NCBI RefSeq assembly: GCF_036588685.1
Contig: NC_086375.1
Location: 72,664,001 to 72,728,000 of the forward strand
Source: Mytilus trossulus
Lineage: Eukaryota
Reading direction: 5' to 3'
DNA length: 64,000 nt
A model generated the notes under the pieces. It did no database searches, was not told where the DNA came from, and worked only from the letters and a program-made list of their open reading frames with translations. The position numbers and the translations under genes are program-made. This document shows positions 19,321 through 28,300 of the stretch, piece by piece (positions within the stretch are counted from its first letter, which is position 1; each line of letters begins with the position of its first letter).

Positions 19321-22300
19321 CTGAAAAATTAAATATTATCGAAAATTTTTAAAAAACGCTAAGAAAAATTTCCTAAATTATTTGTCACATATACAAATAA
19401 TGTTAATACGCAATCACACTCAAAATATACAATAATTAATAGTAAATATTGAATAAAGCATCCAAGGTCATTTCTGACAGATTAAGACTAAATCTTACTA
19501 AAAAATACAAGTAGAATGAACAATACCGGTCAATTAAAATGAGAACTTAAAAAAATAACAGAATTAACCATTTCATTTATTCATCGTCAGGGACTAATTA
19601 ATTATGATTATAATTCTTCTCCTTTCTAGGCACAGTTCTAATAACTAATATCATGAATCTATAAAAGAATAAAAATTCAGGACCTTTTATAGCTTGCTAT
19701 GCAGTATGGGTTTCCTCGTGGTTGACAGCTGTTCAGTGACCAATTGTTGTTTTAAAACTTCTATATCATTTGGTGAATACTTTTTGTCTCAATGGCAATA
19801 ATACCCACATCTTCTTGTTTTTATACATACTTGTCATAAGAATTATATTAATGTCTGTATAAATTTAATGAATCATAAACAATTGACCAGCAAGCCTTAC
19901 TTTTACCTGGATCTAGACCTACTAAATGGTCCTCTATAAAAACATTTAACACTACCAAGATGCACTCTGATAATAAGCACATTTTTTATACATCTCCTAC
20001 AGCACCAGGTAATGTTCAAAGAAAAGATCATTGCATATGATGCCGAAAAATATGGTAAATTGGTGGGTAATCAAAATGCAAGGATTTTAACAGTGAACCA
20101 AAAAAGTCCATACAATATTATAGAGAAGGCATGAAACTTTAGTATATGATAGGTAGGGAGCCATAAAACAACTGATTTTTTCTTTGGTCTTACTGGTGAA
20201 TTTCTAACTAGAGTACACCTTTATAGGTGTAAAGTAAAATCAACCTGTAAAGCATGCTAAGTAGGTACAACTAAACATTCAAAACACCAAAGACCTTAAA
20301 AATCAAAGGTCAAAACAGTCCAAGGTCAAATTTTCTTGAGGAGCTGCAATGTAACTGCTATTTTGAATCAAAGAGAACATGCATACCTTACAATCACTAC
20401 ATCTACACTCAAGTATACACTCAAGTATACAAGAGACTGAGCTAACTGTCTGATAGAAAAGCACCTTGCAATTACGCACATCAATAAAGTAAAGTGTCAT
20501 TAGATACCAAATATGACCTTTTATTTTTCTGGAATAGCGCTAGCAGTAGGATCAAAAACATTGTCAACTTTTTAATGTTAATTCAATAATGTGTGTAAAC
20601 AATGCAAACATGTGACTTCTGTGTTTAAAAGCAAATAACAAAAATTCATGAATTGTGCTCACACATGGCAGCATTGTGCAACAAGCTTTTCACTGGTCAT
20701 AAATGTAATTTTAAAGTCAACATTTTTTTACATTTGTTTTTCTTGATGTTTATTTAATGGCAAATAATGCGACTTTATGACTATCGCAATAATAAGATCT
20801 CACAATAAGATATCTGATACTTATAGCTCAATGCCGATTTTCCTCAAATCGCAATGATTGATGCAAGCAATGAATTCTGAAGTTACAGCATTTTTTCATT
20901 TTTAACAGATGATTCACAAATTTTACACTTGACTGGCAATTAAATGGTATAATCTAGTTAACTTTTAAATTTCTTGAACCAAACAATGATGTAAGCTAAG
21001 TTGATAGACAACAAAATGATATCATTCAAATAATATACACTTGAACAACATTGAATAACTAAGGAAAAACTGCACAAAACACAAATCTCTAGCTAGCAAA
21101 TTCAAATCTGCACAACAAAAATGAATGGAGATCATTTTGCTCAGGGGTTGGTTGAAGTCTAAATAATTGCATGTGCGCAGGTTATACAAAAACAGTGTTA
21201 AATCTTTGACAGCTTTACAGGCATCAATGTTATTTGGAAGAAAAAAAAGATTTTTGAGTCTCACCTGTTCCTGATAGAGCTATACAGAAAGATCATACAT
21301 CAGATTTTATTTCAAGTACATCTATTATATTGGAAACAAATAATTCCGAACAAGGGCTCACTTAAACAGATGATATTAAAACTCCATCTTAATTTACATT
21401 GTTTTTTCATATAAAAGCTAATCAAATAGATTTCAGAAACGAATCTTTCAAAATATTTAAAAATGTATTTCAGTAGCAATTGACTGAAAGGCTGCTCATA
21501 ACTAGGTCTTTAATATATCAATAATAAAATTAGCTATTCTAAAACAGTAAATTGTATTCTTTATTTCCAATTGAAGAAGAATATGAGATAAACAAACAAA
21601 ATTCAAATATAAAACAACAAGTATATCCAGAAAAACTTTCTTGACCAAAGTCTGTATGTTCAAGTGCAGGATGATAGAGAAATACAAACCTTATTCAACT
21701 GCATGTATTGACATTTCACAAGAGTTTATGAACTTAGACGTCAACTACATCTTTGATTATTGTGAATTTATTTTCTTACAGACAAAAACTATGTCACACC
21801 CTTATGCTATAAAAGCATCACAATTTTTTAGCATTCTAATATCAAGGTACCACATTACCATGAATACAAATTGTTTAAGTATGGGGTGAACAAACATTTA
21901 TCTCATCAAATATTGAGGAAGACTAAACATGCAGTCTCTATTTTTGATATAACAACAATTTCAATCTTTACAATTCAAAAATTTCTCTTATCAATAATTT
22001 TCTATAAAATACTTTCAACATAATTGTTCATTTCTTGAATAATGCATAGAACATAATAAATTCAGGATTATATTTGTAGATGCAGTAAGATTTTTCTTGT
22101 AGGAAACTGTAGTATAAAAACATGCAGTGTGAAAACAGATATATAAGTGTGACCTAATGCTACTAATAGAAAAAGAAAATATCTTACCGTAATCTGAAAG
22201 TGTGGATAGGAAAACATATATCATTATTAACATCATTTTCGTGAGTACATTTATACTATGCATATATTTTCAAACTAAATAGTACATATCATGTATAAGA

Positions 22301-25300: not shown

Positions 25301-28300
25301 TGAGATAGTACACACTGGCAATACAGTCAAGAGAGATAGTAATTATAATCAAAAGTTATTCACCTGTCGTAATTCAGCAGTTTTTGAAATCTAAATTTAG
25401 AATCACAAGTGAGTGCTCAGCAATTGTAAATGTATATGAAGCTTAAACAGAACTGGCTTATTTCAGTCATGGTCCTTTACACCATTTTAAACATATATCA
25501 ACGATTGATATTTCACTATTACTATTGTTATTGCATTTACAAAGTTGACTATTTCCTGAACACTTATATAGTAATAACCTGTTGATTGATATACACTTCC
25601 AGTAATGCAATTGTTTTGATATAATTCAATAAATATTGAAATTATTTTATCTTTTATATACCTTACTATGCATTTTTTCTTTCCTTTCTATGTGAATAGC
25701 ACTTTTTTTTACACTAGGATTTCATATATGTGATGGTTCTTAAAACCGACATTTTCTTAAAAATTATTTAGTCTTTAAGTGATACTCTCAAAGCTTTAAA
25801 ATGCAACCCCTTAATCAATCTCACAAACACTTGTATGAAACTTAAAAAAAAAGTGAACTGAATTCAAAATTTATTTGACATCCTTAATTCCTGGTTATTT
25901 TAAGTACCAAACTGTCAAAAAATGACCTGCTCATGTCAAGCACCCTGTGACGAGGATCTAAAGAATCAGTTATATATATTTATACACTTCTTACTAATAC
26001 TTGTATCTTTAAATAATGCATCCCATTTATACACACTTTGTAGACTTCTAGTACAAAACCTCCTAATGTGTAATGCTATTTCTGTACTTGCCACCATTAT
26101 CTGATAACTGTATAACAACCTACCTCATTGGCTTCTTTTTCTAATTCTTTCATGTTAATATCTGTGTCCTCCTCTAAATTAGGTGTTCCAGGATTTCTTG
26201 TTTTCTCACCATTCTCCATATACTTAGTTGCAACTTCTTTATACTGAAATAAATATCAACATTATTTAATTTTCTTGGGTAGAACAGTGAGATGACATAG
26301 AAATGTGTCAAATTACATTAGAAAACAAATTATTTACTTCAACAAGGGAATAACCTGTGGGAAAACATGTATTTTGCATCAGTGTATACAGGATTGTGAT
26401 GCATGTGGGTGAGACTTTAAAAACCAAAACAAAATATTATTCCTGCCAAGATTGCGTCGGTTATTATGCAATTTTGTTCAAACAAAAAACTAAACAAGAA
26501 TGTGTCCTCAGTACACGAATGCCCCACTCGCACTTTCATTTTCTATGTTCAGTGGACCGTGACATTGGGATAAAAACTCTAATTTGGCATTAAAATTAGA
26601 AAGATCATATCATAGGGAACATGTGTACTAAGTTTGAAGTTGATTGGACTTCAACTTCATCAAAAACTACCTTGACCAAAAACTTTAACCTGAAGCGGGA
26701 CAGACGGACGGACGGACGCACAGACCAGAAAACATAATGCCCCTCTACTATCGTAGGTGGGGCATAAAAACTTTATAACCCATATTGTTTTAAATGAACC
26801 TCTGTTCATCATTCCAACTATGTTTGCCATTACTTTAGACATTCAATTTATCAACAATTTCTTTGTTTAAGGTCTATTCCAGAACATTCAACATTAAACA
26901 GTCTAAAACATATTACATCAACTCAATTATTACTAAACCAGTAACATATTTGTTCAGGGGCCAGCTGATGGACTCTTTGACACATTCCCCATTTCCATTC
27001 TGATTTTGATCAATTATGATTTAAAATGATCATACAATTATCTTAACAATATTCATGTCTTACTTGCGGATTTCCAATTGCCAAATTGTTAACCTTTGTC
27101 CAAGCATCATCTCGATTTTTCAATCTTTCCTTTTCTCTGTTGAAATGAAGATAAACACAAATCAGTATTTTAGACATGTTCAAATCAAAACAAATGTAAT
27201 GGGGCATTTTTCAACAAAATAACATATCATCTGTTGTTTTCAGTATGTTAAGAGTGTACCTCTCACTTTTTATACCATTTTCTCATCTCAAAAATAAGTT
27301 ACATTTCTCCAAAATTGAAAAAATATCATTGGAAAACCAGCAATTTACTGCATAAATATATGAGATTCACTGAAAAATGCTTGGGGATCTGCATAGTTTT
27401 AAATCCAAAATATTCAAGTGTGCATTGGGTTTTGATATGAAATTTCAACATTTCATTTTCCTATAAACCCTTCTAGTATTTGTAATTTTTCTGTTTTTTC
27501 CCACTTCATGTTAACAATTATGTAATTAAATAAATAATACAAACTTTTGTCTTTCGGCTTTATACTGCTGTGTACAATCATCGAACAGTTTCTGATTCAT
27601 TTCCATAAATAACTTTAATGCATTGTAAATTAGGCCATGGATTGTCCTAAAAAAAAAAAGATATTTAAATTCTTTTAAAATGTTGTATTATATCGTAACA
27701 AGCACCTTTTCAATGGGTTATCAAGCTATTGTAACAATTATTATCTTGATTTATAATGTGCTACATAAAAAAGTTTCTAAAATTATATCAAACTTTATCT
27801 GTTGCCACTTACTTACACCTTGCTATAAATTTTCTTCAAAGCAATAGTCAGTTTCATTAATATGTTATGTTCTGTTCACAATTAATCAGTTTAGAAACAG
27901 TTTTTTTGATTTTCTTGCTGTGTTGAAGACACTTGGTGGCCTTTATCTGTTTTATGCTAATTGGTCGGGTTGTTGTCTCTTCCACATTCAGTATTTTTTT
28001 TCCACTCTCAATTTTATACATCTAATACTGTAAAAGCAGAAATTTTCGTGGGGGATTTAATTTCGTTTATTTCGTGGATAGGAATTATCCACGAAATTAA
28101 AACCCCAACGAAAATTTAACTGAAGATTTAAATTATTTTATAATCTGACTAAATCCTCTTGACATTATATAATTGATAAACATATATGCAGACAATGAAA
28201 TAAATAGGTTAATTGATTAGACATCGATATTCAAAGGTTTCTTTAAGTCAGATGACTATCCTAATCCTTTGTTTGTAAAATAATTAATAATCACCAAGAA

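Follow-up and report, generated by a model that had tools for sequence, protein, structure and literature searches.

A microexon-rich last intron and a candidate C-terminal arm switch in a Mytilus B56-type PP2A regulatory subunit gene

The window analyzed here, a 64,000-nucleotide (nt) stretch of the Mytilus trossulus genome (assembly GCF_036588685.1, contig NC_086375.1, positions 72,664,001 to 72,728,000), harbors on its minus strand a complete gene for a Mytilus B56 gamma/delta-type regulatory subunit of PP2A, and all positions given below are those of the window. Residues 1-539 of the protein model P0069 were exactly rebuilt from fifteen exons spanning 49960 to 26124, and the linker variant of the window itself was found in five NCBI models (P0069, P0072, P0079, P0080, and P0082). 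The B56 domain (Pfam: PF01603) was detected above the Pfam cut-off and over its whole profile in P0069, P0083, and P0004 (633 bits, residues 85-494). Exon 15 (26124..26243, minus strand, 120 nt, residues 500-539) encodes most of the tether that joins the B56 core to the C-terminal arm (C-arm), and forms the upstream flank of an array of small cassette exons. It is followed by intron 15 (19321..26123, minus strand), whose length of 6803 nt and phase 0 agree with the 6.8-kb last intron reported in a preliminary description of the region. The last exon, with its coding part at 19165..19320 (minus strand, stop at 19165-19167), has 100% matches among proteins assigned to Mytilus edulis and M. galloprovincialis. 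In the frame yielding the arm, it encodes PLL (19282-19290), RRKS (19270-19281), a basic cluster, and LPTNSE (19189-19206), all on the minus strand, the latter comprising a candidate cis-acting short linear motif (cis-SLiM).

Transcript evidence was taken from 4 of the 23 listed runs (X1, X4, X5, and X21), one from each of four studies covering two organisms and in each case the run with the highest share. No listed run is recorded as RNA, and these four were taken as such on the basis of GT-AG joints at annotated exon ends. Splice joints at both ends of exon 15 were present in all four. Together with the protein models, these data indicate that the small exons within intron 15 are almost certainly real. 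The exon with the largest predicted consequence is a 37-nt cassette (24899..24935, minus strand), which also has a 34-nt form resulting from a tandem acceptor at 24932; it had been overlooked in the preliminary description and is itself present in NCBI models, eight of which contain its residues (P0073-P0077, P0079, P0080, and P0082). In X4, the joints 24935-26124 and 19321-24899 define the chain exon 15–37–6–last exon (the 6-nt exon is described below), which carries the sole last-exon joint among the joints listed for that run. The same 37+6 combination occurs in P0083, a transcript-derived protein from another Mytilus species that the tree places in a lineage apart from that of the window. 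The 12 residues encoded by the 37-nt exon in P0083 are identical to those of the window, which is compatible with constraint.

Both the 37- and the 34-nt forms shift the frame of the last exon by one base. Read in this shifted frame (19256..19320, minus strand), the last exon encodes about 21 unrelated residues before a stop at 19256-19258, a tail matched by P0074, P0075, P0079, P0080, and P0083 and carrying neither RRKS nor the cis-SLiM. Out of the 24 possible exon combinations, all 16 that contain the 37- or 34-nt exon lose RRKS. A search of the shifted tail against 50% cluster representatives recovered no relative, its three matches covering exon 15 only, but this negative carries no weight, as such isoforms would hide in full-length clusters; the protein set leaves out isoforms inside the clusters of P0004 (17 members) and P0006 (10 members).

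The broken frame, together with a tail that belongs to no recognisable family, could suggest that the 37/34-nt exon is unproductive, lowering the amount of arm-bearing subunit while its transcript or protein is degraded and yields no active enzyme. Its shape, a short frame-breaking cassette, recalls poison exons that trigger nonsense-mediated decay (NMD), the early stop extends the 3' untranslated region by about 90 nt, and the NCBI model P0073 reads through past the donor of the 37-nt exon. The exon-junction rule of NMD, however, needs a stop located upstream of the last exon junction. The new stop falls within the last exon, so this rule is inapplicable and, unlike in poison exons, a truncated protein is expected instead of junction-dependent decay. 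The B56 domain (85-494) is moreover whole in P0083, the X4 contig with the 37-nt exon is well covered (at a depth of 162, compared with 128 at the joints upstream), and human gamma1, which is also arm-less, forms holoenzymes (2npp_B). Weighing both sides, we consider an unproductive exon improbable.

What the frameshift would remove can be judged against human B56delta, whose C-arm is a brake loosened by Jordan's syndrome mutations and studied as a phosphorylation switch. This protein is the best solved-structure match of P0004 (8u1x_B, residues 5-592, E 2.3e-269), and the arm residues L568, L569, S573, E574, D578, I582, L595, and E600 of the human sequence all align in P0004. Across the aligned homologues, the LL-RRKSE motif of the C-arm was invariant (30/30). 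More broadly, the LLRRKSE, D578, I582, and terminal L..E of human PPP2R5D (PDB 8U1X, 8U89), as well as its N-arm PPP and SSRF segments, align in the mussel protein. The autoinhibition itself was demonstrated in the human protein only. There, according to the structural report (PMC10769853), the arm is fastened to the catalytic subunit by L568 and L569, E574 obstructs the active site, L595TASQE600 occupies the substrate groove, S573 is the PKA phosphorylation site, and a protein cut to 1-560, with the C-arm deleted, shows drastically increased activity. A 2026 preprint (10.64898/2026.08.19.745767) backs this model of dual autoinhibition by N- and C-arms, and another source describes gamma1 alone as not being a phosphoprotein (PMC10970375). 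The mussel frameshift takes away at least what the human 1-560 deletion does, and therefore de-repression appears likely if the protein is made.

We accordingly favor, at a probability of roughly 60%, the reading that the 37/34-nt exon is an arm on/off splice switch, likely giving a de-repressed PP2A subunit that lies beyond PKA control at that site. In the mechanism envisaged, intron 15 holds four spliced small exons (27, 37/34, 6, and 15 nt), and inclusion of the 37/34-nt exon shifts the frame of the last exon with loss of the C-terminal arm. By analogy with human B56delta, the LL anchor, RRKSE, and the terminal LxxxxE would shut off both the active site and the substrate groove, and the arm-less mussel form would then behave like the human 1-560 truncation. 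For the human protein, the accessible portions of PMC10769853 name phosphorylation or disease mutation as what opens the arm, whereas in the mussel it would be removed by splicing.

Several points weigh against this switch. Opening of the closed form by PKA phosphorylation is described for the human protein only (PMC10769853), and in the terminal cis-SLiM the L and E of human L595TASQE600 are kept while the fourth position is N in the mussel and S in human. The single-chain AlphaFold model left the arm unplaced, with no confident linker. The acceptor of the 37-nt exon is weak (rank 28 of the 989 AG-GT pairs scored below), and the exon was seen only within Mytilus, where its conservation lacks a neutral yardstick, the intron flank after the 6-nt exon being also well conserved (P0081). 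Regarding the transcript data, the runs are contigs, which give presence but neither inclusion levels nor tissues; the joints and the letters between them are those among the rows listed; and the shorter flank of the joints in X1 and X4 measures only 27-30 letters, with likeness set to 90. The shifted form is known from RNA contigs, a transcript-derived protein, and models, not at the protein level.

The three remaining exons preserve the frame. The preliminary description had proposed three minus-strand segments flanked by AG and GT, each a multiple of three and encoding ISKTAELRQ, IT, and LYQEQ; their positions and translations were reproduced here, and joints or gap lengths in X1, X4, X5, and X21 establish them as spliced microexons. 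All three (27, 6, and 15 nt) have both transcript support and mytilid homologues. The 27-nt exon (25364..25390, minus strand, nine residues) is an alternative microexon whose acceptor is given by the X1 joint 26124-25390, and whose donor side rests on models and on a homologue, P0006. It is contained in P0003, P0004, P0067, and P0069 and not in P0002 and P0072. In the transcript-derived P0006, IT comes after a 10-residue homologue of this exon; the last exon of P0006 begins with LS, as given by the genomic read-through P0005.

The 6-nt exon (22188..22193, minus strand, two residues) was found in the contigs of all four runs, by its letters in X1 and X4 and by length in X5 and X21. In the X1 contig, five unaligned letters stand between exon 15 and the last exon, the sixth letter of the 6-nt exon being absorbed by the acceptor. 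The same five letters stand between 24899 and the last exon in X4, and in X5 a five-letter gap follows from the record coordinates, so that the exon is known there by length only. It was also present in the three transcript-derived full-length mytilid proteins (P0083, P0006, and P0068; 3/3), and thus in 7/7 de novo assemblies overall. Eight NCBI-source Mytilus models extend to the last exon, and none of them contains this exon or the 15-nt exon (0/8 each), although the 6 nt may simply have failed to align there. The 6-nt exon is a single letter away from the hexamer that opens the last exon (19315-19320), and aligners were presumably confused because of this. The 6-nt exon is therefore likely constitutive, or nearly so, and missed by annotation. 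The likeness between the two hexamers may reflect a duplication of the acceptor region, or it may be chance, given that L opens the last exon in other mytilids.

Nine NCBI models enter at the acceptor of the 6-nt exon and read on into the intron (P0067, P0069-P0072, P0076, P0077, P0081, and P0082). The resulting ends (22187-22018, minus strand) are hydrophobic, variable among species, and devoid of the arm, and the first AATAAA lies at 21772. We think that they are intermediates or artefacts, though true terminal exons are possible. The X4 contig has a higher depth in the intron after the 6-nt exon, which was not used, as contig depth cannot rank gene parts.

Evidence for the 15-nt alternative microexon (21265..21279, minus strand, five residues) comes from a gap length in X21, where three letters of a 5636-nt contig are taken up by the acceptor and 18 remain between the joined exons; only 6+15 fits this gap among the 24 combinations (1/24), and the exon is thus known by length. 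An inner AG at 21270 could yield a 6-nt form of it, which was not seen. In the transcript-derived P0068, IT is followed by a six-residue segment resembling LYQEQ, likely the homologue of the 15-nt exon, with borders inferred from the protein. Both P0006 and P0068 group with Mytilus (support 100/99) but outside Mytilus itself (96/91), and thus represent two other mytilids. In P0087, a short open reading frame of another mytilid, MID stands before the LSKKK of the last exon, a start at odds with both the genomic acceptor and the cassettes described so far.

Contigs both with and without each of the 27-, 37/34-, and 15-nt exons occur among the four runs, and the 27- and 15-nt exons, at least, differ between runs and models, in agreement with the alternative use initially proposed. 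The accompanying estimate of up to eight isoforms was not supported, given that all de novo assemblies seen include the 6-nt exon and that a fourth, frame-shifting exon alters the combinatorics. Similarly, the expectation that gene predictors would miss the array was correct for the 6- and 15-nt exons and not for the 27-nt exon, which is already in NCBI models.

The preliminary description had viewed the array as tuning linker length. In its fuller form, this alternative attributes a combinatorial inclusion of the in-frame microexons to neural or muscle factors (eMIC/Srrm234, Rbfox) and has tether length set arm closure or PKA access. The variation of the 27- and 15-nt exons between runs and their homologues in P0006 and P0068 agree with it, as do small cassettes at the same site in other molluscs and a TGCATG, a candidate Rbfox site, located 62 nt downstream of the 6-nt exon donor (22121-22126, minus strand). 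This motif is kept in one other Mytilus assembly, as deduced from two reading frames of P0067 and P0076. Another candidate Rbfox site (24845-24850, minus strand), already listed in the preliminary description, lies 49 nt past the donor of the overlooked 37-nt exon, and two further TGCATG occurrences returned by the motif scan are at 21928-21933 and 20378-20383 (minus strand). Each of the sites at +49 and +62 has a chance of about 3% per 100 nt, though TGCATG shows no enrichment over the whole intron (4 observed, 1.95 expected, P=0.14), as had been recognized from the start.

The in-frame exons resemble the neural microexons controlled by eMIC proteins (Srrm3/4, Srrm234) in being very short and frame-preserving, with weak acceptors and within a disordered region. 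Targets of eMIC are marked by UGC near the 3' splice site (PMC8797185, PMC10250204). Unlike them, no mussel acceptor has a TGC within 30 nt, the nearest being at -32 (27-nt exon) and -69 (6-nt exon), with none within 100 nt of the 15- and 37-nt exons. Nor was a CTAAY branch point found within 100 nt of the acceptors, where one CTGAT occurs at -24 of the 15-nt exon; the AG-free zones upstream of the four exons measure 23, 60, 40, and 42 nt. The presence of the possibly constitutive 6-nt exon in 4/4 runs from four studies likewise weighs against combinatorial neural inclusion.

Length itself also offers little room for such control. The 27-, 6-, and 15-nt exons insert at residue 540, in a region where residues 511-529 and 538-570 have a predicted local distance difference test (pLDDT) score below 50 in the AlphaFold model, and they add 2-16 residues to a low-confidence tether of 50. 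From the 75 homologous proteins examined, 57 had the arm, 15 had none, and 3 were not parsed; the tethers of the arm-bearing ones ranged from 9 to 67 residues. A few short tethers are artefacts of the parsing, and in several of the shortest exon 15 is skipped entirely. Gating of the arm by 2-16 extra residues through length alone is therefore unlikely, and we regard combined neural regulation and length control of the arm as rather unlikely too. In the preferred reading, the 27-, 6-, and 15-nt exons keep the arm and lengthen its likely disordered tether by those 2-16 residues. Inclusion of the 6-nt exon is then probably the normal state, whereas the 27- and 15-nt exons probably act as minor modulators and do not form a length code. 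In oysters, clams, and gastropods (P0021-P0030, P0041-P0043, and P0084), forms lacking the equivalent of exon 15 were observed, with tethers of 9-15 residues; they were not seen in Mytilus here.

The splice signals were also compared with chance. A consensus scan of intron 15 for candidates of up to 45 nt returned 21 on the sense and 12 on the antisense strand. With a splice-site matrix built from the gene's own 15 junctions, 989 AG-GT pairs were ranked, among which the 6-nt exon came 2nd, the 34-nt form 9th, the 15-nt exon 10th, the 27-nt exon 13th, and the 37-nt form 28th. Pairs scoring at least 12 numbered 10, against about 5 predicted from other introns, and those scoring at least 10 numbered 17, against about 14. 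By sequence alone, the three in-frame segments are not beyond chance; the transcripts confirm them.

Splice-site pairs of this kind are thus common in these AT-rich introns, and the cassettes could have arisen by splicing drift that a permissive, disordered linker tolerates, and have little function under selection. Their differences between mollusc lineages, and two clam loci that show none, are in line with this view. Nevertheless, both mytilids outside Mytilus share the 6-nt exon with it and one each retains the 27- or the 15-nt exon, and each exon occurs in assembled contigs, which drop rare variants. Drift as the whole explanation is accordingly judged quite improbable.

Other molluscs have their own cassettes at this intron, with exon borders inferred from the proteins. 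A second bivalve group shows the presence or absence of LM/IM after a 14-residue exon and directly before the last exon (P0014 and P0015 versus P0016 and P0019), oysters have LSS and TSE cassettes, and Bradybaena has AKNSF. In that bivalve group, the cassette start resembles the mussel 27-nt exon in the same comparison (P0014, P0015 versus P0016, P0019), a possible homologue. A cassette of 15-16 residues ending in KSTDQ is common to Lottia (limpet) and clam-group proteins (P0020 and P0032), which hints at an old molluscan alternative exon at intron 15. In a metagenome scan, 80 loci were kept and 9 inspected, two of which (L001 and L002) are clam-like and span intron 15. Its position is conserved there, at a length of only about 350 and 530 nt, and no mussel cassettes were found in these two introns by eye, a result not informative on mytilids. 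L002 has a possible second acceptor 6 nt inside the last exon (8080-8090), and L001 a possible second donor right after exon 15 (287-300).

A broader proposal, which we advance tentatively and regard as somewhat doubtful, is that mussels set PP2A-B56 autoinhibition by splicing, with some tissues expressing mainly an arm-less, PKA-independent form through the 37-nt dual-frame switch and with in-frame microexons tuning the arm-bearing form. Intron 15 would then be a long-lived molluscan cassette hot spot, its 6-nt exon shared with the second bivalve group.

Splicing at the C-terminus of B56gamma is already known (PMC2257934). In vertebrate PPP2R5C (B56gamma; gamma1/2/3), alternative splicing past the core exchanges or eliminates the C-terminal region. 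In one case this is due to a short insertion, a conserved 35-nt frameshift by which the C-terminus is altered and toggles between a gamma1-like and a longer end. The match of human gamma1 (449 amino acids) ends at mussel residue 500, whereas the 524-amino-acid form keeps the arm. The mussel exon differs in lying one exon later, in reusing the arm exon in another frame, and in being placed amid three microexons. Automated models include the 27- and 37/34-nt exons without remark. No report of microexons in this gene was found among the records listed from the open PPP2R5C literature, subscription papers, supplements, and splicing databases aside, and the two Mytilus records mentioning microexons are unrelated by title.

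Mytilus annotations of the B56 gene lack the 6- and 15-nt exons, and the nine read-through models are suspect. If the arm switch holds, a natural isoform would lose the arm because the exon encoding it is read in a second frame, making this isoform the genetic counterpart of the truncation produced in the laboratory, and mussels would offer an animal model for where unbraked PP2A-B56 is useful. The natural series of tethers (9-67 residues) makes the role of tether length directly testable.

Regarding minor features, the model P0001 was set aside as a chimera in which a C12orf66-like piece and other sequence are joined to B56 exon 15 and the last exon; its B56 part alone maps to the window. Intron 15 contains tandem repeats of 43 nt x 10.1 (24053-24487) and 102 nt x 2 (23096-23296). 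In intron 14, a high-copy interspersed repeat with thousands of matching contigs lies at about 26490-26770, and a similar repeat-like stretch with a CCGT microsatellite is located downstream of the gene, at about 14020-14560.

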